DNA of 64,000 nucleotides from a virus. Taxonomy: Duplodnaviria > Caudoviricetes. The stretch covers positions 10,496 through 74,495 of IMG/VR virus record IMGVR_UViG_3300020227_000045; one strand, 5' to 3'. Within the stretch, counting starts at the first letter, position 1. Each line of letters begins with the position of its first letter. The notes under the pieces were generated by a model. It made no database searches. It was given only the letters and a program-made list of their open reading frames with translations, and had not been told where the DNA came from. Below, piece by piece: positions 2,010 through 48,908 of the stretch. The translations under genes were made by a program, and so were the position numbers.

Positions 2010-2200
2010 CCGTTGTCAAAAATTTATAAAACTCTATAAATTTTATTCCTTATTCAACGTACCCCTTTTTGAGTATTTCACTATAAATAGCTACTTCTGA
2101 TTACTCTACTAAGGTTTGTGTGATACTCCAAAGGCTTAAATTCCCATACAACGAATGGTACATATATTTAGTATCGTGTTAGTGATATTCTAAATATTAT
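2010..2200 (-). ncRNA. putative TnpB omega-RNA / IS607-type right end
   Basis: directly 3' of tnpB; minus strand reads ATGTACCATTCGTTGTATGGGAATTTAAGCCTTTGGAGT...GGGGTACGTTGAATAAGGAA...TTTTTGACAACGG, resembling IS607-type right ends terminating in GG; limits approximate. Confidence 0.65.
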
Positions 2201-13612: not shown

Positions 13613-13861
13613 TTACCATCCTCTTCTATATTTTGTCAATACATTTTTTAAATAATCATTAGATTTTGTCATATCTGAAATCAGTTGTTGTTTTTGAATT
13701 GTAGATAACTTAATACTATTTTTAACCAATACATCGAATTCATGTAAATTTTCTTCTACATTTTTAAGTAAATGTGGATTAGACTTTACAATCTTATTTT
13801 CTCTAGCTGTTTTATAATTATTATTCAAATCTTCGTATAAACCTTCTACATCGTAATTCAT
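13613..13861 (-). CDS. hypothetical phage protein
   Basis: 82-aa ORF with AAGGAG SD. Confidence 0.65.
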   Translation of the reverse strand: MNYDVEGLYEDLNNNYKTARENKIVKSNPHLLKNVEENLHEFDVLVKNSIKLSTIQKQQLISDMTKSNDYLKNVLTKYRRGW

Positions 13862-13890
13862 TTTAATCTCTCCTTTTATTTTATATACTT

Positions 13891-13919
13891 AGTATATCAT
13901 AAAGGTTTTTTATTGTCAA
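13891..13919 (-). promoter_or_regulatory. sigma-A-type early promoter
   Basis: TTGACA-17 bp-TATACT. Confidence 0.75.
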
Positions 13920-13932
13920 CAAGTATTTAAAT

Positions 13933-13960
13933 AATTAACCCCTATTTTAAGGGGCTAATT
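13933..13960 (-). terminator. hairpin terminator after the portal gene
   Basis: AATTAGCCCCTT-AAAAT-AGGGGTTAATT inverted repeat right after the portal stop. Confidence 0.6.
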
Positions 13961-15604
13961 TTATTCTTCATCCATTGTTTGTTTTTGGTATCCTGCTTTA
14001 TCATCTTTAGGTTGTCCATCTTTACCCATTTCATCAGCTTTACCATTAACATCTTCATCAGTACCATCAAGAGGTTGTTTACTTGGGTCTAGTTTATTTG
14101 GTGCATCATTACCTAGTAATCCTTCTTTTTCCGCTTCAAAACGTTCTCTGTTCATATCTTGTCCGATACCTTGGATATATTCAGCTTTAAGAATAATGTC
14201 TCCACCTTCTATAGGCTCATGACCTCTTTCTTTACGTGCTTCATTAACCGTTTTGAATGTAGATACTTCTTTAGTTAATATATCTAGTTTTTCTTCTTCA
14301 GACTTCGTATCTCCACCAACAAATTGGAAAAGATATTGTTCTCCAAATTCTTCAACTAAATGTTTATTAATTAAATCTTCTATAAATCTAAGTAAAGGTT
14401 GTAAACCTTTATTTTGAGATTGTTGGAGTTTTTTCTGAGGGTCTGATTCATTTAAGGTGTTTCCTCCCTTAGAACCTGTAGCTCCTCCTTTGTTAGGGAA
14501 GCCAATTTCAGCAGGGTCAATACCATATAAACTAGCTATAATATTGATAAGGAAATTTAACCATTTCTCAAATTGCATATCATTTGCAGTTGGTGTCATA
14601 TTAACAAAGTTAATATCTTCAGCACTTACTACAGGGATTTGCCAACTTCCATTTATACCACTTAAACTATTTTTCCATTCACGCTTAAAGTTTTGAAGTG
14701 CCCTTTGGGATTGTTGTTGTCCTGTTTTAATCTGTAAGACACCTCTTGTAGTTCCTCCATGCGAGAAGAATCTATCATTAAAAGATTCAGTATTTATAAA
14801 GGCAATTAATTCTCTCATAGCTATTTCTACTTCAGACAATCCATAACCACTTGAACCTATATCTGTTCTTGGGTTTCTAATGCCCATTGCCATTTCTCTA
14901 GAAGTAAAAGCAGCACGAACTTGCTTATCTATAACTTGAACGTAACGTTGTCCACCTTTAATAATCTCACCTTTAGCATTTGTACCATAGAATATTGTAC
15001 TAGGGTCAACTGCTATAAATTTCTCTAGTTTATTTGTCTTCTTATTAAATATTTTCTCAAAGTTAACTTGGTCAAATATATAAGTATCTCTAACAATTTT
15101 TCTACAGAAGTTTTGGAATGAATCTCTATCAATATCTCTATCTTTACCTGTATTAAGTAAAAATTCTTCTATACGTTTAATTTCTTCTTTTTGTTGTCTT
15201 CCTGGTTCTTTATTAAAATCTCTCATTCTTACTTGGAATCCTAAACCTTTTTCTGAGTATCTAGCAGGTTGACAATACATAGATACTTGGTTTTGTCTCG
15301 TAAGTATTACTGAGTTTAAGATTGGGTTACTCCCAAACTTTTTAAGTACATCATGCAAGTTATGTTCACCTTTAGTATAACTACTCTTATCCCTATATTC
15401 GGGGTTTGTATCAAAAGCAGTTAAAAAAGGCTCTGCATAAGCTTTTTGATTTCCATTTAAAGACTTATTAATATTATTGTCTTTAGCATTTTTCTCTATC
15501 TCTCTTATGTTTAAAGCTAGGTTTTCTTCAGGTAATTCTATATCGTAATTCTCAGTACCGTCTTTTAATCCACCTAACCTCAAAGACTTCCAAAAGTCTG
15601 CCAA
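13961..15604 (-). CDS. portal protein
   Basis: 547 aa; YGLSEVEIA, FFSHGGTTRGVL, GSWQIPV, DMQFEKWLNFLINII..LYGIDPAEIGF, NKGLQPLLRFIEDLIN, TVNEARK. Confidence 0.93.
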   Translation of the reverse strand: MADFWKSLRLGGLKDGTENYDIELPEENLALNIREIEKNAKDNNINKSLNGNQKAYAEPFLTAFDTNPEYRDKSSYTKGEHNLHDVLKKFGSNPILNSVILTRQNQVSMYCQPARYSEKGLGFQVRMRDFNKEPGRQQKEEIKRIEEFLLNTGKDRDIDRDSFQNFCRKIVRDTYIFDQVNFEKIFNKKTNKLEKFIAVDPSTIFYGTNAKGEIIKGGQRYVQVIDKQVRAAFTSREMAMGIRNPRTDIGSSGYGLSEVEIAMRELIAFINTESFNDRFFSHGGTTRGVLQIKTGQQQSQRALQNFKREWKNSLSGINGSWQIPVVSAEDINFVNMTPTANDMQFEKWLNFLINIIASLYGIDPAEIGFPNKGGATGSKGGNTLNESDPQKKLQQSQNKGLQPLLRFIEDLINKHLVEEFGEQYLFQFVGGDTKSEEEKLDILTKEVSTFKTVNEARKERGHEPIEGGDIILKAEYIQGIGQDMNRERFEAEKEGLLGNDAPNKLDPSKQPLDGTDEDVNGKADEMGKDGQPKDDKAGYQKQTMDEE

Positions 15605-19464: not shown

Positions 19465-22400
19465 TTAATCATCTAAAAAGAAATTATTATTGTCTTCATA
19501 GTTTGTATTAATGAATACAGAATCAAATTCATTTTCATTATTTTTAATGTACAAGTCTTCTAGACGTGATAGACCAATTCTAGCATATATACTTGCTTGA
19601 CTATAGTGGTCATCGCCTTTTCTCTTGATTACTTGATACATTTCTTCTGTTCTACTATCTTCTTCATCTCTAATTACCACATTTTGCCAATGTTTAAGAA
19701 GTATAGCTTTATCGTTATCATTTTCTTGGTAAATTCTTATTCTTCCTGTTTTTAAATCTTGGATATAAATTTTGTTCTGCATTAATTTATCTACAGTAAC
19801 AATATTTGAATTCTCATTGAATACAGGTTTAATTTGTCCAGATGATTTAGGAGATGATTTGTAAGTACAACCAAACACAATATCTTCACCAAAGTATTGT
19901 TGAAGTCTTAGTAGGTTGTTTCCTGAATCTCCTGTATCTGCTACAATAATATCTGGATTATATTTAGAAAATTCTACACGTATTTGTTCTATATCTGATT
20001 CAACCATATTAGGGTTTTTATTTCTTTTAACATTAAATAACCTAATTAAGTCTATCTTACCATCTTCGGTCATTCCATGTATAGTGCAATAATGAACATT
20101 TCCCCAATCCACTGATGCTGCGATAAATTTATAATCTCCTCTATTAAACATTTGTTTCTTAGCAATAGGAGATTGATTATCATAAATATCTTCTTGTAAT
20201 ACTTTCATCTTCTGGTCTTCATAAGGGAATCCTAGCGTGTAGTTATAAAACAATTGGGTTGATTCAGTGTTCATTTCTTTTTCTTTTAATTCACTAGCTG
20301 AAATCCAACATTTTTTGTTACGATTGAGTTCGTTATTCTCAACCTTCTATATATCGCTATATAAGTTCAGACTATATCTTTACCTTATCAAATGAGACTT
20401 AGGTATCCTCTGTTTCGTGCTACTTAGCACTACTAATTAGTCGTTGCACGTTCTCTTATTACAAGAGCTTCGCTCATGATTATCTCTAATGAGAGACTTC
20501 CCATGAATTAAAAGGACTTCACTCTGTACATTTCTATATAGAGGGGCTTGGTTAACCGCATTTAGCTGTGAAATAAAATAACCTCTTGTTCCTTTTCCAC
20601 CTTTAGTTCTTTCAGGGTACTTACAGTGCCATTCACCGTTATACCATCTATCTAGAAGTTTACCACATTTTTGACAAACAAATTGGTAACTTCCTTCTTG
20701 CACTGTTTTAGCCATCTCGTCAACACCTTCAGGATTGACTAATAGGATATTCCCACTCTTCTCTAAATTATCTGGGTCATAATCTTCATAACTCATTTCA
20801 TTTAAGTAATCACAATGTGTACATCTATGACCATAATACCATTGGTCAGATTGCATGTAGAGTTTATGGATTCCCATATTTGGAGTCGTCTTAAACATTA
20901 TTATTTTCATAATAAAATGGACTATCTCATAATCCTTATTTTTGGTTAAGGATTCTCTGCTTTACGAAATTAATCTCTTATCTGATTCTACCTTACTCCT
21001 TTTAGTAAGTTACTCAGAAATTTAGTCTCTAGGCATTTACAAGTATATAACTTGATTTAGCAATTGATTGTCTACAGCTTTACCTGTTTAGAGTTTCCAA
21101 TTTTAACAGAGTTTTTCAAAACAAATTACTTTGTTAAGCCCCACGATTTAACATAGGGGTACTCCAACGTCTTATAACCTTGAAAGGTGAACTTGACATT
21201 GATTCCATTGCTGATGATTCTGATGATGAAGGTACTCTATCATATTCCAAATTATACCGCTAGTTTCCTAGTATTTACTTACGGTTTAGACTATCTCATA
21301 ACTACTTACTTAGGTTAGTAGCTCCTTGCTTTACGAAATTAATCTCTTATCTGATTCTACCTTACTCCATTTAGTAAGTTACTCAGAAATTTAGTCGTTA
21401 GGCATTTATCAGTTAATAACTGAATTTAGCAATTGATTGCCCTCAGCATTATCTGTTAGGGGTTTCCAATTTTAACAAGGTTTATACTGGACAAATTTTA
21501 TCCAGTGACAAATAATCAATCATTTTTTTACTTAATACCCCTACTTTCGTAGTACTTTAACACTATTTAAATAGTGGGCTTAGACTATATCTTAGCTATT
21601 CATTAATAGCTCCTTGCGTTACTTCTCTTTGAAAGAGTTTTTTTATCTAAAGTAATTTAGAAATTTAGTCGTTAGAGATTTTCCTCTACATAAAGTAGAT
21701 TCTTTCCTACGGTATTCCCTCTATCCTTATAGGACTTAGGGTCTCTTACCAGCTACTTAAAGCTATGACCGTTTAGCAAGGTTTAACGTGAACAGATTAT
21801 TTTATCCACGCCTTCTAAAGCTTTAGGTGTAGAACTTGTTCTAAAGAACATACTTGAATTTCTTATTTGTTTATATTTCAAGGAATCATTATCTTGGTTA
21901 ATTATGCTTGCAAAATAAGGTTGTTGCAGTGTAGGGTTTATCCTACTTTGTACGAACTTTTGCATTTGATCACTGGTTGGGTCTAGGGTATACCGCTAGT
22001 TTCCTAGTACTTTAACACTTAATTAAAAGTCGGAGTAGACTATATCATAATCCTTATTTTCGGTTAAGGACTCTCTACGTTACGGATTAAATATCCTTTT
22101 ATCTAGTTCTCAATATTCCCTTTTGAATATTTACCTAGAAGATTAGTCGTTAGGCATTTACGTAACTAAGGTATATATACCTTAGTTCGATTTAGCAATT
22201 GATTGTCCTCATCATTACATGTTAGGAGTTTCCAATTTTAGTAGAGTTATTCGATATACATTACTGTATAAAGCCTCCCCTAATTATTTGAAGGTGAACA
22301 TACATTTGACCGAATCTTTACTATGCGTATCTGCAAAGTGTAACATCTTATTGTATCCAACTTCACTTACGTTTATACCGTCACTTTCGTGATATTTATA

Positions 22401-23255
22401 TACGGACTAGACTATATCTTGATTGTATAAAGATAATTTTAATTACGGTTTATACAACCCCTTGCTTTACGAAATTAATCTTTTATACTGTTCTACACTC
22501 AACCATTTATGAGCTTACCAGTAATTTTAGTCGTTCGGCATTTATCAGTTAGTAACTGAATTTAGCACAGGATTGTCCTCAACTTTACTTGTTAGGAGTT
22601 TCCCTGTTTAACAAGGTTTTACTTGAACAAATTTTTATCCAAGTTGTCTCGACTTAAGTACTGCTATGTTAGGATGTTTGTCATTACGTTTATACCGTCA
22701 CTTTCGTGATATTTATATACGGACTAGACTATATCATAATCCTTATCTTTGGTTAAGGATTCTCTGCTTTACATTATTTATATTAAATAAATAACTATTA
22801 TCTAGTTCTCAGTATCTCCTTTTAGATACCTACCTAGAAATTTAGTCGTTAGCCATTTATCTTAATTCTATTATAACATACACATTTAGTGTTGTCAATA
22901 CTAAAATTAAGAATTTAGGAAGGGATTCTCACTATCCGTTTGGACTTAGAGTTTCTTATCAGGATATTCTTTATTTTCCTATGCCCTTTTAACAGAGTTA
23001 TTCGATATACATTACTGTATAAAGTCACATTATTTATATGATAGCAATTTGCCATGGTCTATGAGCTTGAGCTTTACTTTTATCTCTATTTGGTATAGAA
23101 AAAGTAATATTATGACCACGTATTAAATTGTGTTTCAACATATAAGCAGTTGTACTAGACATTGTTAATACATAATCTAACTGTTCTTGGGTAACATTTG
23201 TAGTTCCATATGTGGATATGAGTAAGTCTTTTAATTGTTTTCCATCCATTTTCAT
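19465..23255 (-). CDS. terL: terminase large subunit split into 8 exons: 23255-23038, 22686-22637, 22369-22292, 21982-21804, 21520-21500, 21247-21155, 20889-20555, 20308-19465
   Basis: exons sum to 1818 nt (605 aa plus stop) and restore RPWQIAIINDKHPNIAVLKSRQLGLSE, MFTYPTSDQMQKF, EGVDIDYLSLDEYDRV, WSTPTTPNMGIH, LNAVWISAS and the nuclease motifs SVDWG and GDDHY. Confidence 0.93.
20309..20554 (-). ncRNA. group I intron terL-I7 (246 nt, ORF-less)
   Basis: GT|taacc...atG|TTGG; AACGACTAA and GATATAGTCT. Confidence 0.88.
20890..21154 (-). ncRNA. group I intron terL-I6 (265 nt, ORF-less)
   Basis: CCT|atg...aaG|ACG; AGAGACTAA and GATAGTCC. Confidence 0.85.
21248..21499 (-). ncRNA. group I intron terL-I5 (252 nt, ORF-less)
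   Basis: GAT|aaaa...ttG|GAA splits Walker B D|E; AACGACTAA and GATATAGTCT. Confidence 0.88.
21521..21803 (-). ncRNA. group I intron terL-I4 (283 nt, ORF-less)
   Basis: GAT|aaaa...atG|ATT; AACGACTAA and GATATAGTCT. Confidence 0.88.
21983..22291 (-). ncRNA. group I intron terL-I3 (309 nt, ORF-less)
   Basis: U/G junctions restore T-Y-P-T; AACGACTAA and GATATAGTCT. Confidence 0.85.
22370..22636 (-). ncRNA. group I intron terL-I2 (267 nt, ORF-less)
   Basis: U/G junctions; CGACTAAA and GATATAGTCT; splits the Walker A region QLG|LS. Confidence 0.88.
22687..23037 (-). ncRNA. group I intron terL-I1 (351 nt, ORF-less)
   Basis: 5' exon ends in U, intron ends in G; P7 elements AACGACTA and GATATAGTCT. 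Confidence 0.88.
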
Positions 23256-25675: not shown

Positions 25676-25829
25676 TATGTTAAAGTAGGTAAGGGTAATT
25701 AAGTTTACCCTTATTTTTTTATACATTTTTTACTTGCTAGAGATAAAAAAGTATGATATAGTATGAATATCTAGAAAAATATAGTTAATTTGATTTTACA
25801 AATTAGTAAAAGTGTGTTATACTATATTT

Positions 25830-26290
25830 AGTTAGAAATACATAACAATTAAATAAAGAGCTGATGAGTACACATAACGGTGAGATGTGTAGGGATAGCG
25901 ACAATGAGGAAGTTAAATCGGAGCTTCGAGCATCACCATAAGAATTCGATGGGTATATATGTAAATAAATAGTACAATGGTGCATATATTTCCAGATTTG
26001 GTGATGACTACCAATGTACTAAAAAGGTCAGGGAGGTTTCTTGTTGTGCTTTGCACAGGGGAGCCTTGTTCCCATATACAGACTTCACGAGGGGCGGTAG
26101 CTATCCCCTCTTTAAACATTATAACTAAAGGCTAAACGAAGTAGTATTGGTTGTTAGGACAAGAATTAACGTAAAACAAGGTTAGCACTAGACCGTAATC
26201 TATACATATTTTATACACTATGATTATATCTTTCTAGTTACAATTCTGTTGTACCTAGGGGATAAGTCTACCCGTAATGCTACGCAAACC
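25830..26290 (+). ncRNA. candidate structured non-coding RNA A
   Basis: promoter TTTACA-17-TATACT at 25795-25823; no SD-led ORF; several complementary pairs (25869-75/25885-91, 25931-38/25999-26006, 25971-80/26011-20, 25892-99/26100-07); limits approximate. Confidence 0.55.
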
Positions 26291-26595
26291 TAAACAAATA
26301 AAACACAAAACAAATAACCTAAATAATTAATAACTCATTACTTACTGTAGACTTATCTAATAATTAAATAAATTAAATAATAAATATATAGAGTAATTAA
26401 GATATACAGAAAACTAAATAAATATACAGTATATATAAATAAACTTAATAAACATATATAAATATATTAAATTAATTAAGTAATTGTAGTGAAGAATTAG
26501 AGCGAATCTTTATAACTTAATTATATACATATACATACATAAATATTAAGATATACTAAATAAAATAACTTAGTATATATTTTTTAAAATAAGTG

Positions 26596-26695
26596 TTGAC
26601 ATATTATGATTTATAAGTTATAGTTAACATATACTAATTATTCAAGATATTAATTAAAAAAAGTTATTGACAAACATTAATAAATATATTATAAT
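26596..26695 (+). promoter_or_regulatory. tandem sigma-A promoters
   Basis: TTGACA-17-TATAGT (26596-26624) and TTGACA-17-TATAAT (26667-26695). Confidence 0.8.
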
Positions 26696-26734
26696 TAGAT
26701 ATATAAAATAAATTAAAGAAAAGGAAATGATAAT

Positions 26735-26944
26735 ATGAAAAAACAAGTAATGGTTTACAGTAAATTAGAATGTCAAGAATGTGGAAGTAACTTAAGTATT
26801 CCTAGAAAAAGAGCTAAGAAAAGAAGTGAAGGACACATTAAACATATGTATTGTCCTACATGTCAATCAACTACAGGATTTATAGAAACAAGTAAAGACA
26901 AATCATATGATTTTTGGGAACAATGGCAAGCACAATTTAACTAA
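26735..26944 (+). CDS. small zinc-finger protein conserved in Twort-like phages
   Basis: CQECG...IPRKRAKKRSEGHIKHMYCPTC. Confidence 0.8.
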   Translation: MKKQVMVYSKLECQECGSNLSIPRKRAKKRSEGHIKHMYCPTCQSTTGFIETSKDKSYDFWEQWQAQFN

Positions 26945-26958
26945 GGAGATGGTGAGAG

Positions 26959-27261
26959 ATGAGTAACTATACAAATCATGGACAGAAAAGACTACGTAAA
27001 AGACAAGGTGTTAAGAAAAGTAATTTAGAAGATGAAATAGATAAAGTGTTAGAAGAAGGATTAAGTCATGGTGATTGTAAAGGTAAGCTTAAGAAATACT
27101 TAGACAGACTATGGTTTAGTCATAAGAGTGGTTACTTCAGAGTTTACAAATCTAATATTTATATATTTGACTTTAATACAGATAGATTAATTACAATGTA
27201 TGCTCTACCTGGACACTTAAATAAGATTTATCAACAATGTTTAAAAAAGAAATCAATTTGA
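26959..27261 (+). CDS. basic protein, possibly DUF4258/RelE-like fold
   Basis: N-terminal YTNHGQKRLRKR and C-terminal RLITMY pattern. Confidence 0.45.
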   Translation: MSNYTNHGQKRLRKRQGVKKSNLEDEIDKVLEEGLSHGDCKGKLKKYLDRLWFSHKSGYFRVYKSNIYIFDFNTDRLITMYALPGHLNKIYQQCLKKKSI

Positions 27262-27299
27262 TTTTGTAAAAATGGACTTGTGTGTTATAATGTAATTAA

Positions 27300-27935
27300 G
27301 TAGTTGAGATACACTACTTAAACCACATGCCCACCCTATATATTCAGAGAGATTAAGTTCTCTCTGTTTATACATATATTAGTGTATTGAAAGCACTTGT
27401 TATAATGACTGAATAATGGTTTGGTATCCATAAAGTACAAGATAATCAAACGAACTAAAACCTATCGGGTTAATCAATCGGTAGGATAGGTCGTCATTAG
27501 TATTGTTTAATATGATTGGTATACTTGGTACTTGGTTATAAGGTCTGTAGAGTATGATAACAGCTAGAGTTTAACTTCTTCTTAGGGTCTTAGCGGAATC
27601 CTAGGAAGATACGCTGTAACAACTTCCTGTAGTTGGAGCACAGAAATGTGTTTGATAATAGAGGTTATCAGTACAAGTAGCATAAACCTACAGTTCAAAA
27701 GATATATATTTGATAAAAATAATTATGTAATCAAATAATTTACTTCTTCGACCATGTGAACGTTACTAACTATTATGTTAGTATCACATTATCCTTTTGG
27801 ATTACGTGAGATGGACTTAAGGTAGCTCCTTAATAGAGTCAAGCGTAGTGATTCACTTAATAACAGGTCTTATAATCAGGTTCTCGGTGAGACGAGTTAT
27901 AACAGGTGCTTTGATTACATTAGTAATCCCATAAC
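27300..27935 (+). ncRNA. candidate large structured non-coding RNA B (~530-630 nt)
   Basis: no ORF; 13-bp closing helix 27393-405/27897-909, 12-bp helix 27536-47/27864-75, 10-bp hairpin 27578-87/27599-608; G-U pairs only on plus strand; extended -10 TGTTATAAT at 27283-91. Confidence 0.7.
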
Positions 27936-27989
27936 AATAATTCCTCCGTTTTATTTATTACATTTTTTATTGTTATATTAAGTCCTAGG

Positions 27990-28415
27990 TATATGAAAAG
28001 ATATTGTAGTTATCAAAAATTTAAATCATATAAATCCTCCTTTCCCTTTGTTTTTTGTATAGATTCATTCTACAGTCAAATCGAAGTAGTATACCTATAA
28101 ACCCACTTTAAATAAATAGTATGGATGAACAGTGGGCTCCATACCATACATAAACATTTTAACATATGACTGTTTTTTAGACCTTATCCTGTTTTCCAGT
28201 ATAAACAATAACTAATGATAAGGGATATGTAAGAATAATTAGGGTGAGAGTTTAGCTACCTCTTGCTTAATGCTTAGCGACTGTATCTAACTCTTTGGAC
28301 AGTATAAAATTTGCAAAGACGGGCAGTTTAGCGAGGAGACCTGCGGTACCAAACATCTCGCTTACATAATAGTAATTGATATCGACCCTGATTAAAGCTT
28401 TATCAATTCTTTTTT
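27990..28415 (+). ncRNA. candidate structured RNA C / long leader of the lysis operon
   Basis: TGTTATATTA motif at 27971; crossing helices 28102-07/28131-36 and 28119-24/28139-44; AGCGAG/CTCGCT helix; terminator-like end 28374-28415. Confidence 0.45.
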
Positions 28416-28439
28416 ACATATATTAAAAGGAGAAAACCT

Positions 28440-28625
28440 ATGGCTAGTTATAAACAAACTAACTATGTAAATAGTTTAATTGTAAAAGGTTTAATGGAAG
28501 ATAAAATTAAAGACAAACAAGACTTACTAGATAAATTAGAAATCCTTGATGGGGTTAGTTTATCAGACTTTGACACAAAAGAAACTTCCGATATTATTAA
28601 AAAATTAAATACAATAGTAGAATAA
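28440..28625 (+). CDS. conserved small protein upstream of holin
   Basis: AAGGAG SD; MASYKQTNY...DKLEIL...SDIIKKLN. Confidence 0.75.
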   Translation: MASYKQTNYVNSLIVKGLMEDKIKDKQDLLDKLEILDGVSLSDFDTKETSDIIKKLNTIVE

Positions 28626-28700
28626 AATTGCTATATTATCCATTGAAGATTAAAAGTCTTTAATGGATTTTTTTATATAATATTATAGGAGTGATAGATA

Positions 28701-29258
28701 GTGTCAAAAGATACTAACCAGAAAAAGCCTAAAGTATTTTTAGGTCAAAACTTATCTACACGTGTACGTAGTCCTTTATTTTGGACAGGTATTGTAGGTA
28801 TTTTAGGTAGTGCAGTTGTATCATTCGGTGGATTAATAGGTGTAGATTTATCAGCTCAAGTAGATAATGTCACAGCTAACTCAAGTAAAATTATTGAGTT
28901 TATTTTCTTAATCCTTGGATTGTTAGGTGTTTCAGTAGACCCTAATAGTAAAGGTGCAAAAGATAGCGAGATTGTAAGAACTGATTACACAAAACCTAGA
29001 AATGATAAAGACCCTAATGAATTTGTTCAATGGAAAAATGATAGTTCACTTACAGATGTAACTCCAGAGCGTAAAGAAAAAGAACCAGAAGAATTCGATA
29101 CTTCTGAACCTTTTACAGATGACTCAGATGAAGTAGAATATGATGTTTCTGAGTATGAAGATGAAGATAATACACCTTTAGGTGGAAGTAAACTTCATGA
29201 TGATACACCATTAGATACTACAATTGACCCTGACAATTTAGAAAGGGATGGTAAATAA
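28701..29258 (+). CDS. holin (phi LC3-like)
   Basis: two TM segments, LLGVSVDPNSKGAKDS motif, acidic tail, directly before the endolysin. Confidence 0.9.
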   Translation: MSKDTNQKKPKVFLGQNLSTRVRSPLFWTGIVGILGSAVVSFGGLIGVDLSAQVDNVTANSSKIIEFIFLILGLLGVSVDPNSKGAKDSEIVRTDYTKPRNDKDPNEFVQWKNDSSLTDVTPERKEKEPEEFDTSEPFTDDSDEVEYDVSEYEDEDNTPLGGSKLHDDTPLDTTIDPDNLERDGK

Positions 29259-29259
29259 G

Positions 29260-32235
29260 ATGGTTGCAAAACTCACAGAAAAAGAAGCAATAGCATTTGT
29301 CAAAAGTTTAGAAGGTAAGAAAATAGACTTTGATGGATGGTACGGATATTAACATAATGGTATCCTAACTCATTGAATTGACGGGAACCCCCTTAGAGCT
29401 TTAACTACTAACTTATCATGGTGACATAGGTAAGGGCAAACAGTAATGTGTTTGGTAAAGTAAAAAAGTTAAAGATTGGGAAATCCGCAGGTAAGCTACT
29501 ATGGTAACAGTAGTAGAAACTTCAACGACTAAATACTATCAATTGGTAGTTAGTGGTGAGTACTTGATAAAAGTTAAGTAATAATATAGTCTGTTCTTAT
29601 AGGAAACTATAAGAGTTACATTATACAATCAATGGTAGAAATATTATTGAGGAAAGATGATAACATAACAAAAAGCAATGTTTTGACCTAGCTAATGAAT
29701 ATTGGAATAAATTATTTGGCACAAGTCTTAAAGGTGTAGGAGCAAAAGACATACCTAATTCAAATAATTTTAAAGGTATAGCTAAGGTATATAATAATAC
29801 ATCTTCATTTAAAGCTAAACCAGGTGATTTGGTAATTTTCAACTCATCTTATGGTGGCGGGTATGGTCACGTAGCTATAGTTTTAAATGGAAATGCAGAT
29901 GGAAATTTAATGAAGTTTGTAAGTCTTGACCAGAATCAAATAAGGTTCCCTTTATATAGTAATATATAATTGAATAACACATTAAATTGCTGGAACCCCG
30001 TAAAGCTCAATTAACTACAACGTAATAGGAAACTATAAGCGTGAAAGTTAGGAAACTAGAAAAAATAATTGAGATACCATAAGCTGAGAAAAAGCTCAAA
30101 GAGTGCTAAGTGGTGAATAATCGGAAATCAGCATCCAAACCTACAAATAGTGGGGAGGTTCAACGACTATAATATGTGGCTCCTATAAGGAGTATGGTAT
30201 AGTCTAGTCCGTAAATAAATACTAGGAAACTAGCGGTATAGACGTGGCAAGGCGGAGGATGGACAAGTGGTCCAGAAAAAGGTGGTACAGGTTGGGAAGC
30301 AGCAACAAGAGTAACTCATCCATACGATTTCCCTATGTGGTTTATCAGACCATATTACAAAGAAGAGTCAAAAACAAAAACTACAAGTAAAAAAACAACA
30401 GCTAAGAAAAAAGCTAAAAAACTAACTTATATTCGTGATGAAGTAAAAGGTTATCGTTTACCTAATCGTGGATATAAGCCAAAAGGGATAGTTCTACACA
30501 ACGATGCGGGTAGTGCAGGTGCTACAGCTGAAGCGTACCATCGTGGATTAGTAAATGCACCATACTCAAGATTAGCTGCTGGTATTGCTCATTCTTATAT
30601 CAGTGGTAACACAGTATATCAAGCATTACCAGAAAGCAGAGTAGGTTGGCATACGGCTTAATTTAGGTCATTTGTATAGTAATATACATCTAAATGTGTT
30701 TTAATTCAGAGGAAGTCTAAACAATATAAGTTGTAGATAATTCTGAGCTAAGTTTATATTGACATATAATTATATTTATTGTATAATATTCATAGGAGGA
30801 GATTTTATGGAATTATACAAATTAGAAAATATTAAAGGTTTAGAAGAATTAAAAGGATACTCAATAGATAAAGAAGGTAACGTATACTCTCACAAATATA
30901 CAACTTCGAATGGTAATACTTTTTATTATCATATATCAAATGAACCAGTTAAGAAATTAACTACTAAAAAAGATAGTAGAGGTTATATAAAAATAGGGTT
31001 AAACGGTAAAAGTTTATTCATTCATAGGCTGTTAGCTTTATTATTTATTCCTAATCCAGAGAATAAAGAACAAGTAAATCATATGAACGGTGTTAAAGAT
31101 GATAATAGAATAGAAAATTTAGAATGGTGTACAAACAGAGAAAATAGAATACATGCTATAGAGAATAATTTGTTAGATAACATACCTTATGGCATTTCTC
31201 AGTACACTAAAGAAGGGTTACATGTTAGAGATTATGATACTTGTTTAGAAGCTATAGAATACTTAGGCTTAGACAAAGGTGCTTCTGGAAATATAGGAAG
31301 ATGTATTAGAGGTAAAAGAAAAACAGCTTATGGTTATATATGGAAGTCAATATAAAAAAGTGCAACGACTATCCCTTAGGACGAGTGCCAATAAAAATAA
31401 ATCGTCAACAGGAGTAGGGCTCAAGTCAATGGAGTGGGTGAAAATCCCTTAAATCGAAAAGGACACTTCCTTTTATAAGGAAAAGATATAGTCTATTCTT
31501 ATAGGAAACTATAAGGAGTTCATAAGAGAACCAATAAAGAGTTACGAACTTTATTGAATATTAAAGAACCAAAATGGTAATAAAAATTACTATGGTATAG
31601 AAATATGTCAATCTATAGGTGCAAGTGATAAAGTATTCTTAGCTAATGAACAAGCATCTTTCCAAGAAGCTGCTCGTTTATTAAATAAATGGGGATTAAC
31701 AGCTAATAGAAATACTATCCGTTTACACATGGAATTTTCTCAAACTAGCTGTCCTCATAGAAGTATGAAGTTACACACTGGTTTTGACCCTGTAACACAA
31801 GGCGTACCTTCAAAAGCTACACAGCTTAAACTCAAAGACTATTTTATTAAGCAAATTCGTGCTTATCAAAATGGTAAAATACCAACTGCAACTGTTTCTA
31901 AAAACACTAGCTCTGCAAGCAATACAAAATCAACTGTAGCAGGAAAATGGAAACGTAATTCTTTCGGAACGTATTACATGACAGAAAAAGCTAGATTTAC
32001 TAATGGTAATCAACCTATAGCAGCAAGAACAGTAGGACCTTTCAGAAGTTGTCCATTAGCTTATTGGTTCCAACCAGGAGGATACTGTGATTATGACGAA
32101 GTAATGCTTCAAGATGGTCACGTATGGATTGGATATGATTGGCAAGGACAAAGATATTATCTTCCTATACGTACATGGAATGGAGTAGCTCCTCCAAATC
32201 AAGGTTTAGGAAACCTTTGGGGTTCAATTAAGTAA
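29260..32235 (+). CDS. endolysin (CHAP - amidase_2 - SH3b) in 4 exons: 29260-29349, 29676-29936, 30245-30658, 31567-32235
   Basis: exons sum to 1434 nt (477 aa); joins give DGWYGY|[17 protein letters not shown]|WQGGG, LHND, GWHTA|[17 protein letters not shown] and an SH3b C-terminus. Confidence 0.93.
29350..29675 (+). ncRNA. group I intron lys-I1 (326 nt, ORF-less)
   Basis: TAT|taac...aaG|CAA; TTCAACGACTA and TATAGTCT. Confidence 0.88.
29937..30244 (+). ncRNA. group I intron lys-I2 (308 nt, ORF-less)
   Basis: AAT|caaa...acG|TGG; TTCAACGACTA and TATAGTCT. Confidence 0.88.
30659..31566 (+). ncRNA. group I intron lys-I3 (908 nt) with HNH gene
   Basis: GCT|taat...aaG|AAC; TGCAACGACTA and AAGATATAGTCT. 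Confidence 0.9.
30807..31355 (+). CDS. intron-encoded HNH homing endonuclease with NUMOD1-like tail
   Basis: AGGAGG SD, ATG 30807; [36 protein letters not shown]; C-terminal [15 protein letters not shown]. Confidence 0.92.
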   Translation: MELYKLENIKGLEELKGYSIDKEGNVYSHKYTTSNGNTFYYHISNEPVKKLTTKKDSRGYIKIGLNGKSLFIHRLLALLFIPNPENKEQVNHMNGVKDDNRIENLEWCTNRENRIHAIENNLLDNIPYGISQYTKEGLHVRDYDTCLEAIEYLGLDKGASGNIGRCIRGKRKTAYGYIWKSI

Positions 32236-37602: not shown

Positions 37603-38633
<1,031 letters not shown>

Positions 38634-38719
38634 ACAGTAAAACTTATGTTATATTATAGTACGAAGTGAAATAAAATTTAAACTTTTAAAAAAACATATA
38701 AATGAAAGGTGAATAATAA

Positions 38720-40144
38720 ATGACCGAAGAAAATAAAAACGGTTTTGAACAAAAGTTAAAACCAAGTCAACGTGAATTCGCTGAAAACTTGCAAGAACAA
38801 TTGTCAAAATCATTCCAAACAGGATACGGAATTACTCCTGATACACAAATTGATGCAGGAGCTTTACGTAGAGAAATTTTAGATGACCAAATTACAATGC
38901 TTACTTACACTAATGAAGACTTGATTTTCTTCAGACAAATTACTAAACGTCCAGCTCAATCAACAGTTATGAAATATGACGTTTACTTAAACCATGGTGA
39001 AGTAGGTCACTCAGGTTTCGTTCGTGAAATCGGCGTAGCACCTGTATCAGACCCTAACATCCGTCAAAAGACCGTTAACATGAAATATGTAAGTTCTACT
39101 CGTAACATGTCAATCGCTACAACGTTAGTAAACAACGTTGAAGACCCAGCTCAAATCTTGACAGAAGATGCGATTGTAACAGTTGCTAAAAACATTGAGT
39201 GGGCTTCATTCTATGGTGATGCTTCATTATCAAGTGAACCAACTAACGAAGGCGGACTTGAATTTGATGGTTTAGTTAAATTAATTTCTAAAGAAAACGT
39301 AATTGATGCAAAAGGTAAAGCATTAGACCAATTATTATTAAACGATGCAGCAGTTCACATTTCTAAAGGTTTCGGACAACCTACAGATGCTTTCATGCCT
39401 TTAGGTGTACATGCAGAATTCGTAAACGATATGCTTTCTAACCAACGTCAATTAATGTCAGACAACAGTGGTAACTTAACAGCAGGTTACAACGTACAAG
39501 GATTTAACTCAGTACGTGGACACATTGCTTTACATGGTTCTACTGTAATGGAAAATGACTTAATTTTAGACGAATCAGTTCAACCAAAACCAAATGCACC
39601 TCAACCAGCTAAAGTAAATGCTACTGTTAAAACAGACCAAAAAGGTAAATTTGAAGACCCACAAGAAACTGAAGTTAACTACAAAGTAGTAGTAAACTCA
39701 GATGAAGCTAAATCTTATGCTAGTGAAGTAGTACAAGCACAAGTTTCAAATGCTACAGATGCAGTTGAATTAACTATTCAATTACAATCTATGTATCAAT
39801 CACAACCTCAATTCGTTTCTATTTACCGTCAAGGTAAAAACACTGGTTTATTCTACCTAATTGATAGAGTAGCAGTTTCTCAACAAAACGAAGAAGGTAA
39901 CATTGTGTACTTAGACCGTAACGAAAACTTACCAGAAACAGCAGACGTATTCGTTGGTGAATTAACTCCAACAGTAATTCACTTATTCGAGTTACTTCCA
40001 ATGATGAGATTACCATTAGCTCAAATTAATGCTTCAATTACATTTGCAGTATTATGGTATGGTGCTTTAGCACTACGTGCACCTAAAAAATGGGCTCGTA
40101 TTAAAAACGTTCGTTACACAGCAGTTAACCCATACGCACAATAA
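38720..40144 (+). CDS. major capsid protein
   Basis: SKSFQTGYGITPDTQIDAGALRRE..., LWYGALALRAPKKWARIKNV; high-expression codon usage. Confidence 0.96.
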   Translation: MTEENKNGFEQKLKPSQREFAENLQEQLSKSFQTGYGITPDTQIDAGALRREILDDQITMLTYTNEDLIFFRQITKRPAQSTVMKYDVYLNHGEVGHSGFVREIGVAPVSDPNIRQKTVNMKYVSSTRNMSIATTLVNNVEDPAQILTEDAIVTVAKNIEWASFYGDASLSSEPTNEGGLEFDGLVKLISKENVIDAKGKALDQLLLNDAAVHISKGFGQPTDAFMPLGVHAEFVNDMLSNQRQLMSDNSGNLTAGYNVQGFNSVRGHIALHGSTVMENDLILDESVQPKPNAPQPAKVNATVKTDQKGKFEDPQETEVNYKVVVNSDEAKSYASEVVQAQVSNATDAVELTIQLQSMYQSQPQFVSIYRQGKNTGLFYLIDRVAVSQQNEEGNIVYLDRNENLPETADVFVGELTPTVIHLFELLPMMRLPLAQINASITFAVLWYGALALRAPKKWARIKNVRYTAVNPYAQ

Positions 40145-47641: not shown

Positions 47642-48908
47642 ATGGCAAGTGAAGCTAAACAGTCCATTCACACTGGTAATACCGTCTATCTCATGATTAA
47701 AGGTAAAATTGTAGGCAGAGCTCAATCAGCTTCAGGTACTCGTGAATACGGTACTGAGGGCGTATATGAAATTGGTTCAATTATGCCACAAGAACACGTT
47801 TACCTTAGATATGAAGGTACGGTTACAATAGAAAGATTACGAATGAAAAAAGAAAACTTCGCAAAATTAGGATATGCTTCTTTAGGTGAAGAAATCCTTA
47901 AAAAAGATGTTATCGACATTTTAGTTGTAGATAACTTAACTAAGAGTGTAATCATAGCATACCATGGTTGTAGTGCTAATAACTATAAAATTTGTAGCTT
48001 TAGGAAGTAATTCCTATCGAAAAACTTTTCTAAACAGGGAAACCTAAGTACAATTTGTATAAGGCAATCCTGTGCTAAATTGACTTAATCAGTCATAAAT
48101 GCCAAACGACTAACAGAAACCTATTCATATAAGTGAAGGGAGTAAGAGTACAGCCAAGTGGTCAAGGTGTTGGGTAATAACCAAATAAATCCTTGTTAAA
48201 TGGAAAAGAAAAGAATCCTTAATATAAAAAGGATTATGATATAGTCTCATCTATATGGAAACATATAGCAGTTCTAAAAGAACGTACAATGATTAACGAC
48301 CATTGTAGAAGTAAATGGATGAAGAAATTAATACCAATGAAATGATTACAGAAAGTATTGAGTAGGTAAAAAGCTCCTATAATCAGAAATGGTTATAGCA
48401 AATCTCTCTAATTCATGGAAACCCCTAACAAGTAATGATGAGGGCAATCATGAGCGAAGCTCTTAAAACAAGAGAACGTGCAACGACTAGTCTACGGACG
48501 TACAATCAAGTGATTGGAAATGGGAGACACCTTCAATTTTAAGGTGATGATATAGTCTGAACTATATGGAAACATATAGAAGGATAGAATTAACGATTCT
48601 ATTCGTAACAAAATTGTTTCTTATCTTACAGCATTAAATTTCTAGTGCCCTTATACAGTAATGTATATTGAATCAATCCTCTAATTCAGGGAAACCCTAA
48701 ACGAAATTAAGACGTAGGCAATCCTGAGCCAAGCCTATAATTAGGAAGGTGCAACGACTATCTCTAAGGAGAGTACGCTCAAGTGAGTGGAAATGGGGAT
48801 TATCCTATACAATATAGGATAGTGATATAGTCTGGACTATATGGAAACATATAGAAGGTTAGGAGTAACGAACCTAATCGTAACATAATCGCAGATAAAG
48901 CATCATAA
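47642..48908 (+). CDS. tail tube protein in 4 exons: 47642-47986, 48318-48363, 48617-48634, 48892-48908
   Basis: exons sum to 426 nt (141 aa): ...GCSANNY|DEEINTNEMITESIE|FSYLTA|SDKAS-stop. Confidence 0.92.
47987..48317 (+). ncRNA. group I intron tube-I1 (331 nt, ORF-less)
   Basis: U/G junctions; AAACGACTAA and GATATAGTCT. Confidence 0.87.
48364..48616 (+). ncRNA. group I intron tube-I2 (253 nt, ORF-less)
   Basis: U/G junctions; TGCAACGACTA and GATATAGTCT. Confidence 0.87.
48635..48891 (+). ncRNA. group I intron tube-I3 (257 nt, ORF-less)
   Basis: U/G junctions; TGCAACGACTA and GATATAGTCT. Confidence 0.87.

Follow-up and report, generated by a model that had tools for sequence, protein, structure and literature searches.

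What does a Twort-like staphylococcal phage encode in a stretch of its genome that is devoid of open reading frames (ORFs) of usual size? The question is raised by positions 27262-28439 of a 64,000-nucleotide (nt) window, the whole stretch of DNA analyzed here, which is part of a 74.5-kb IMG/VR virus record (IMGVR_UViG_3300020227_000045). No ORF of at least 50 amino acids (aa) was found within these positions on either strand. A first-pass annotation, made from the letters of the window, had proposed a large non-coding RNA of about 530-630 nt at this locus, possibly of the ROOL or GOLLD kind, and its reading as a large structured RNA of that kind is supported. The stretch 27380-27922 on the plus strand is very likely the gene of a divergent ROOL RNA, the Twortvirinae form that is known from Kayvirus as 'lncRNA2', and probably a self-assembling cage RNA. 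Both the transcript and the ROOL class were known already; the window RNA adds a member.

The RNA region shares 96-97% identity with the Staphylococcus phages vB_SsapH-Golestan101-M and RSM-J51Sa. Conservation of the core at 27402-27900 amounts to 81-95% in Kayvirus and in many unclassified Twortvirinae. Phage K, a Kayvirus, is 83.7% identical over these positions; the identity is about 67% in Silviavirus, and the core is partially conserved in Sciuriunavirus and Twort. In phage K and in the window the RNA occupies the same locus, between small early genes and the lysis module. For the analysis of its fold 27 non-identical homologues from Kayvirus, Silviavirus, Sciuriunavirus, Twortvirus, Sepunavirus, unclassified phages and IMG/VR contigs were aligned (alignment A1), a set that spans at least five genera of Twortvirinae. 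With RNAalifold, 123 pairs were predicted, of which 83 show compensatory changes on both sides. Four helices that could not be placed or were missed by the program, two crossing and two nested, were added by hand. The final structure comprises 135 pairs in 19 helices, including crossing (pseudoknot) helices. Covariation, which the first-pass annotation had proposed as a check, was overwhelming, as 93 of the 135 pairs change on both sides. Overall, 98.0% of the pair cells were paired compared with 80.2% in column shuffles (0 of 500 reached the real value), a control that overstates significance because the 27 sequences are kin. The many independent pair types and the controls with slid partners are sounder: pairing dropped to 36-42% when the partners were slid by 1-3 columns, and the covariation score was 0.533 compared with at most 0.081 for slid partners.

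The same alignment indicates the coding strand. G-U pairs account for 10.3% of the pair cells, and pairing reaches 98.2% on the plus strand versus 87.9% when read on the minus strand. This asymmetry places the RNA on the plus strand, as had been concluded from G-U pairs at first sight. The minimum free energy was -149 kcal/mol for the plus and -119 kcal/mol for the minus strand, with a z-score of about -5.3 for both; thus, stability alone cannot separate the strands. The ends of the RNA also point to selection. In the lineage of the window, which includes two near-identical IMG/VR loci (L028 and L019), the 13-16 outermost pairs of the closing helix differ wholly from those of K-type phages on both strands of the helix, and the promoter region upstream of the RNA has likewise been replaced, despite 94.6% identity of the RNA interior to phage T2-102. 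Both flanks were exchanged and yet remain complementary, which would be difficult to account for if the closing helix were not under selection.

These data also bear on whether the locus holds an RNA gene at all, or rather small ORFs or an element acting at the DNA level, such as inverted repeats or an origin. The GenBank records of some relatives annotate one to four 'hypothetical proteins' across the homologous stretch, and the RNA ends do form an inverted repeat. However, the small ORFs over the RNA are at most 40 aa long and lie on varying strands, and in A1 indels and the variable linker disrupt every frame. Compensatory changes in the helices, strand-specific G-U pairs and the abundant transcription of homologues are further points against this explanation, which is excluded by the substitution pattern and retains practically no probability. 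The plus strand of 27380-27922 is confirmed as a closed, highly structured RNA gene with the following parts.

27380-27922 (+): RNA core of 543 nt, delimited by the bounds of the closing helix, an nhmmer profile, covariation in A1 and a match to the Rfam ROOL model at 27545-27867
27380-27405 with 27897-27922 (+): closing helix P1; 23 pairs, 13 two-sided changes, 99.7% paired
27408-27527 (+): 5' domain; bipartite hairpin at 27408-27436 and helix 27438-27449/27516-27527 around the hairpins 27451-27493 and 27500-27513
27531-27548 with 27863-27880 (+): long central helix; 18 pairs, 12 compensatory
27550-27553 (GAGT) with 27855-27858 (ACTT) (+): short helix after the central helix; 4 pairs, 3 compensatory
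27555-27565 with 27660-27670 (+): long-range helix; 9 pairs, 8 compensatory, 100% paired
27577-27588 with 27598-27609, and loop AGCG 27592-27595 with CGCT 27612-27615 (+): hairpin and loop-junction pairing (helices 12 and 13)
27627-27632 with 27688-27693 (region 27627-27693) (+): helix CTGTAG/CTACAG, which crosses the long-range helix (helices 14 and 15)
27694-27744 (+): A/U-rich linker, variable in length and sequence, closed by GCAT 27680-27683 with ATGT 27754-27757
27744-27849 (+): 3' domain; conserved TTCTTC and TGTGAA, hairpin 27763-27784, small hairpin CCTTTTGG at 27793-27800 and three-tier hairpin 27801-27849
27883-27896 (+): terminal hairpin with a GUGAGA-type loop, just 5' of the 3' strand of P1; helix 19, 3 of 3 pairs compensatory

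Most of the helices noticed in the first pass recur in this structure. The 13-bp helix that joins the ends (GCACTTGTTATAA 27393-27405 with TTATAACAGGTGC 27897-27909, one G-U pair) is the inner part of the 23-pair closing helix. The nested 12-bp helix 27536/27864 is part of the 18-pair central helix, whose 12 compensatory pairs are all two-sided changes, and the hairpin 27578/27599 has 12 pairs, 10 of them with double changes. Other elements fared less well. The hairpin CCTATCGG/TCGGTAGG forms, but only its inner four pairs can be aligned across genera. Both words of the proposed hairpin TGATAA/TTATCA exist, but their local pairing is not conserved (75.9% paired, with uncompensated changes); the TTATCA strand at 27665-27670 instead pairs over a long range with TGATAAC at 27555-27561. 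The GATTAC/GTAATC hairpin at 27913-27929 is present, is confined to three near-identical sequences and overlaps the 3' strand of the closing helix.

Within the conserved parts, the 5'-domain helices (helices 2-7) are 91-100% paired, each with 2-7 compensatory pairs. The loop-junction pairing AGCG/CGCT is 100% paired in A1 and shows swaps from AU to GC and from CG to UA; the corresponding sites read GTAAGTA/TACTTAC in Listeria phage A511 and UGGC/GCCA in the ROOL consensus. The CTGTAG/CTACAG helix encloses an invariant GTTGGAG, a hairpin with a GAAA tetraloop (27637-27652) and the invariant GTACAAGTAGCA at 27671-27682, and the same core motifs occur in the ROOL consensus as GccgaGAAAucggC and GUAcaAGUAGC. 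In the linker zone the alignment itself is unreliable; the helix that closes the linker covaries, its pair 354:443 being CG in 14 and UA in 13 sequences. The three-tier hairpin of the 3' domain carries invariant GGAC/ATAGA internal loops and the apical loop TAGCT (27823-27827). When the 3' domain was folded sequence by sequence the architecture remained the same, with stem sequences that differ in every genus (covariation helices 17 and 18).

Several homologues carry lineage-specific insertions inside the RNA, at A1 columns 100-142 and 482-517 (loci L007, L002, L011, L012 and L003). In Stab23 the loop of the 27461-27485 hairpin accommodates a further hairpin of 44 nt, and an extra hairpin of about 37 nt follows the 27763-27784 hairpin in K, Clo6, EW36 and Silviavirus and is absent from the window RNA. 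The insert sequences differ between the two groups of insertion-bearing RNAs.

To which class does this RNA belong? ROOL RNAs were reportedly described by Weinberg et al. and by Cousin et al. in 2017. The Rfam ROOL model (RF03087) has 574 positions and a curated gathering score of 99.1 bits. Rfam scans of the 64-kb window at the gathering threshold and of 26500-29500 at E<=10 gave neither a ROOL nor a GOLLD match, and standard scans of 37 kb of relatives gave no match. When the window stretch (566 nt) was searched alone, it matched the ROOL model at 52.1 bits (E 1.2e-9, model positions 182-526), and the initial reading as 'not ROOL' was therefore dropped. The RNAs of SEP1 (88.2 bits, E 2e-18, full model), Twort (50.7 bits, E 2.7e-9) and Listeria phage A511 (87.5 bits, E 2e-16, full model) also scored below the gathering score, and the RNA of Enterococcus phage phiEF24C exceeded it (264.8 bits, full model). 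GOLLD was not detected at E<=10 in the window stretch or its relatives. Thus, of the two classes that the first-pass annotation had suggested and for which it had proposed model searches, ROOL was significant, though under the curated score, and is bridged to the window by A511 and phiEF24C, while GOLLD was negative. GOLLD RNAs are likewise large, ornate phage RNAs that lie near tRNA genes and form RNA-only cages, but they are larger (about 800 nt) and their fold is unrelated.

For a reciprocal search, the central domain (27528-27697) was modeled from staphylococcal sequences only, giving the covariance model R1. R1 recovered the window RNA with 197 bits at 27528-27697, matched A511 with 80.1 bits (E 6e-13) and phiEF24C weakly (23.3 bits, E 0.003-0.04), and gave no match on 118 decoy loci. 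Nothing was found with R1 in Bacillus phage SPO1 and Brochothrix phage A9, and Lactobacillus phage LP65 gave a non-significant 14 bits. R1 detected a single copy of the RNA in the window and in the whole record; a sequence-only nhmmer profile likewise found one copy and no paralogue in the window. Loci collected from IMG/VR with a loose motif (more than 118) were chance matches, none of which matched R1. A stricter motif returned 15 loci, 10 of which are true homologues.

The elements of the RNA also follow the ROOL order. From the 5' end both have the closing helix, a bipartite 5' hairpin with UGAA(G/U)A and a long-range bracketed helix, followed by the loop-junction hairpin, the GAAA hairpin, GUACAAGUAGC, the A/U-rich linker, GUGAAAGUU, the GGUNGCUCC loop and a last small hairpin. 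The ROOL motifs (GAAA hairpin, GUACAAGUAGC, UUCU...GUGAA(A/C)GUU and GGUAGCUCC) all occur in the window RNA and vary little or not at all across A1, and the loop GGU-N-GCUCC is common to the window RNA, A511, phiEF24C and the ROOL consensus. The crossing helices occur in the ROOL order and covary: positions 192-203 and 326-337 of the ROOL model, which form the bracketed pseudoknot helix of the Rfam consensus, are aligned with the long-range helix 27555-27565/27660-27670. In ROOL, the counterpart of the terminal hairpin 27883-27896 is the GGGcGAAGgCCC hairpin (positions 543-554). With 543 nt and ends joined by a 23-pair helix, the RNA lies within the size range of about 500-660 nt expected of a closed ROOL RNA. 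The A/U-rich linker 27694-27744 and the covarying helix closing it occupy the position of the disordered linker of ROOL, which is located inside the cage (PMC12286853).

Differences to ROOL exist as well. The window RNA measures 543 nt versus 574-659 nt. The layout of its 5' domain equals that of ROOL model positions 23-170, but the domain is reduced to two inner hairpins instead of three, and the window RNA lacks the optional stem that precedes the L8-type hairpin, which appears as a deletion in the alignment. The RNA is found in strictly lytic Herelleviridae rather than in prophages or rumen contigs, and the window has no tRNA beside it. The likeness extends from the phage-borne location, the length class (540-660 nt) and the long terminal helix to the domain order, the crossing helices and the place of the linker. 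ROOL RNAs are also usually found beside tRNA genes and are very abundant, and homologues of the window RNA rank among the most abundant transcripts of infected cells (PMC7698491, PMC11598898, PMC12282133). As to the setting, the RNA lies in an IMG/VR virus record of the Twortvirinae type, with tRNAs absent from the window and present at the locus in relatives.

The first-pass annotation had considered that the RNA may be a new class, and its resemblance to ROOL could then be due to convergence or to a biased sub-threshold match. The score does stay below the curated cut-off in all staphylococcal lineages, the standard scans of the window and of the 37 kb of relatives are empty, and the sequence-only nhmmer profile does not reach A511 and phiEF24C. 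Against this stand E-values of 1e-9 to 2e-18 in three independent lineages, the alignment of SEP1 and A511 over the whole 574-position ROOL model and the reciprocal R1 match to A511. The window RNA shares with ROOL the order of its helices, the GAAA hairpin, GUACAAGUAGC, GUGAAAGUU, the GGUNGCUCC loop, the closing helix and the place of the linker, and the genomic place equals that of the bona fide ROOL RNA of phiEF24C. A separate class is thus not borne out by the significant ROOL match with its reciprocal support and appears improbable. The fold of this ROOL RNA is kept by compensatory change across the Herelleviridae of Staphylococcus, Listeria and Enterococcus. As the scores lie under the Rfam gathering score, standard annotation misses the Twortvirinae form.

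Is the RNA made? In Kayvirus vB_SauM-515A1 the lncRNA2 of 525 bp (38,000-38,525) accounts for 8.4-9% of counts per million and has a typical early promoter (PMC7698491). A 'lnc' RNA was reported for phage K at 37,679-38,832 (PMC9241854), and lncRNA2 of the same phage, at 38,024-38,566, is visible from 2 min; together with lncRNA1 it represents 27% of the reads (PMC11598898). The phage K RNA bounded by the closing helix (KF766114, about 38,007-38,590, minus strand) contains these published limits of lncRNA2. The Kayvirus papers give no structure and liken the RNA to GOLLD and ROOL by position and abundance only (PMC7698491, PMC9241854, PMC11598898). In a literature search no publication was found that reports a structure or the ROOL membership of these phage RNAs, and the Minerva preprint and the phage K CRISPR paper are silent on them. 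Kayvirus lncRNA2 is a direct homologue of the window RNA at the same locus. The lineage of the window differs from it by the sequence of the closing helix, by a different promoter with a leader of about 80 nt and by the lack of downstream tRNAs. Phage K lncRNA1 (13,688-14,215, beside tRNA-Met) showed no similarity to lncRNA2 and no R1 match; blastn found no counterpart of it in the 64-kb window, where synteny predicts it at about 51-52 kb.

A comparable transcript exists in Listeria phages, as region 26,236-26,727 of phage CKA15 is among the most-read of the genome (PMC12282133). It coincides with the A511 RNA (26,196-26,747, minus strand), which follows tRNA-Pro, has its own TTGACA-17-TATAGT promoter and a closing helix of 20 pairs, and carries the same apical loop as the window RNA. 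The A511/CKA15 RNA belongs to the same family according to its R1 and ROOL matches, but is located downstream of tRNAs rather than upstream. The phiEF24C RNA lies 113 nt upstream of tRNA-Asp/Trp/Arg with its own TTGACA promoter, an arrangement as in Kayvirus.

The flanks of the window RNA are organized as follows.

27264-27291 (+): candidate sigma-70-type promoter, TTGTAA, 16 nt, TATAAT, with TG extension; 10 of 12, predicted start near 27298
27298-27379 (+): putative 5' leader with two hairpins (about 27299-27319 and 27345-27366), read from sequence and lineage-specific
27923-28439 (+): ORF-free downstream stretch, the site where relatives carry tRNA genes

The candidate promoter is kept in L028 and L019, which share the flank, and transcription from it would yield an RNA of about 625 nt, compared with the core of 543 nt. 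Other lineages possess instead a TTGACA-17-TATA(A/G/C)T promoter about 11 nt ahead of the closing helix; such a promoter directly before the helix was searched for in the window lineage and not found. The TATAAT at 27400-27405 was rejected as a start element, as it lies inside the closing helix. The leader is kept only among the three near-identical relatives and is absent from the K-type, Silviavirus, Twort and SEP1 loci; it would be transcribed and perhaps trimmed off.

No tRNA, terminator or Rfam match was found in 27923-28439, and the whole window contains no tRNA and no detectable tRNA remnant. The description of the locus as a former tRNA island is therefore not borne out by the window itself and derives from synteny alone: relatives carry tRNA-Asp/Phe/Trp/Ser just downstream of the RNA. 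The stretch also holds a cassette of about 160 nt (28237-28395) that is wholly different among the three near-identical relatives (window, L028 and L019), with conserved flanks. Parts of this cassette are 83-88% identical to the 88-89-kb staphylococcal siphoviruses PT1-4 and SA2; it contains no tRNA and has no Rfam match.

The tRNAs of the relatives suggest another explanation, according to which the RNA is a cis-acting leader or processing platform of a phage tRNA operon rather than functional in its own right. Indeed, tRNA genes follow the RNA on the same strand, with no terminator in between, in Kayvirus, Silviavirus, PSU5/6, Stab23 and phiEF24C (PMC11598898). However, the lineage of the window has lost the tRNAs and kept the RNA intact, the A511 RNA stands in the opposite order, downstream of tRNAs and with its own promoter, and qdsa001, Twort and SEP1 have no annotated tRNA beside the RNA. 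In phage K, lncRNA2 is much more abundant than the downstream tRNAs, though no terminator separates them (PMC11598898). Such a role as a mere operon leader is therefore highly improbable.

In the CKA15 study, where an interaction with a protein was proposed for the Listeria RNA, a Ro-like protein is described some 1-2 kb further downstream (PMC12282133). The RNA would then be a Y-RNA-like scaffold for a Ro/Rsr-like phage protein, which its long terminal stem, loosely resembling that of Y RNAs, and the domains DUF2828 and vWA-like DUF7788 in the A511 counterpart gp178 could support. However, A511, phiEF24C, K, Romulus, SEP1 and the window record all lack the Pfam TROVE domain, and homologues of gp178 are absent from K, Romulus, SEP1, phiEF24C, SPO1 and the window record. 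The proposal made for CKA15 does not generalize. Moreover, no Rfam Y-RNA (YrlA) match was obtained on the RNA, and solved ROOL RNAs assemble protein-free (PMC12286853), which leaves the scaffold a very slim chance. In A511, gp178 ('RNA-binding protein', L161 34-1554 (-)) lies about 1 kb downstream of the ROOL RNA, and its combination of DUF2828 and DUF7788 recalls Ro60. An Rfam tRNA match not annotated as tRNA (52.5 bits, E 1e-8) was also observed in A511 at 25,837-25,907 (L159 1338-1408 (-)), within the coding sequence of gp179 ('ribosome associated inhibitor A; zinc finger domain').

How would a ROOL RNA of this kind act? The ROOL RNA env-120 forms a protein-free octameric cage; kissing loops and A-minor contacts hold the copies together, and the variable linker lies in the interior. 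Bridge B4, a covarying pairing between L8 and J6/8, and bridge B6, a symmetric kissing loop formed by L18, are among the contacts named (PMC12286853). By analogy with the solved RNAs, the window RNA would be transcribed early from its own promoter at 27264-27291 and then trimmed to a nuclease-resistant core, the ends of which would be locked in the closing helix. It would assemble with its own copies into a hollow cage of the ROOL type and thus act as a folded RNA particle rather than as an antisense regulator or mRNA. The loop-junction pairing 27592-27595/27612-27615 is probably the counterpart of the L8-J6/8 contact, that is, of the intermolecular bridge B4, and the self-complementary apical loop UAGCU (27823-27827) may represent the B6 element. 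This loop is UAGCU in most lineages, including A511 and phiEF24C, and UUGCA in Sciuriunavirus, where the palindrome is kept. Twort and the Rfam consensus have UCGCU, of which only the GC core is self-complementary.

Several observations weigh against the identification as a ROOL cage RNA. The window does not reach the ROOL gathering score (52.1 versus 99.1 bits) and covers the model in part, and no match is obtained unless the short stretch is searched by itself. In the Twort lineage the palindrome of the apical loop is broken. The assignment of B4 and B6 was derived from the Rfam consensus line and the text of the structure paper, not from coordinates. As the optional ROOL stem and one of the three 5'-domain hairpins are absent, the assembly state may differ. 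No demonstration of self-assembly was found for any ROOL RNA of Herelleviridae, and the promoter and both ends of the window RNA are predicted only.

The absent parts lead to a further proposal. The Twortvirinae form may be a trimmed ROOL without the stem that forms the inner ring of the solved octamer, and, since the 5' domain is smaller as well, an assembly of different size or symmetry may form. Its abundance would then reflect a stoichiometric job in host take-over, e.g. caging or titrating ribosomal subunits or an RNase. The conservation in Herelleviridae of Staphylococcus, Listeria and Enterococcus would, if this were true, mark an ancient core function of the virus family. We regard this proposal as unlikely.

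Other non-coding features were observed in the window. A second ORF-free kilobase (25676-26735) upstream of the RNA includes a stretch designated 'RNA A' (25815-26305), follows a terminator at 25687-25716 and lies ahead of two consensus promoters at 26596-26695. An Rfam search of it gave no match at E<=0.1; the equivalent site holds a 356-aa coding sequence in phage PSU6, and the gap is just about 480 nt in phage K. Rfam matches above threshold were obtained for the Staphylococcus small RNA S808 (31800-32054 (+), inside the lysis region) and for RAGATH-18 (2046-2134 (-)). Five group I introns are present, at 20898-21164 (-), at 22388-22646 (-) and three in tandem at 47976-48854.

ROOL RNAs form RNA-only cages larger than the ribosome, and those with a solved structure stem from metagenomes or prophages. 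If the dominant 'lncRNA2' of phage K-like viruses and its counterparts in Listeria and Enterococcus phages are ROOL RNAs, as is very likely, this identity accounts for a feature that has repeatedly gone unexplained in three or four transcriptome studies. An entire ROOL subfamily is overlooked by the Rfam model and its threshold, and GenBank records leave it unannotated or annotate it as small hypothetical proteins. The retention of the RNA after the neighboring tRNAs have gone argues for a role independent of tRNAs. Phage K-like viruses are strictly lytic, easily grown, open to CRISPR-Cas9 editing (PMC12442396) and in therapeutic use. With ROOL present in such tractable lytic phages, its function would become an ordinary question of phage genetics.

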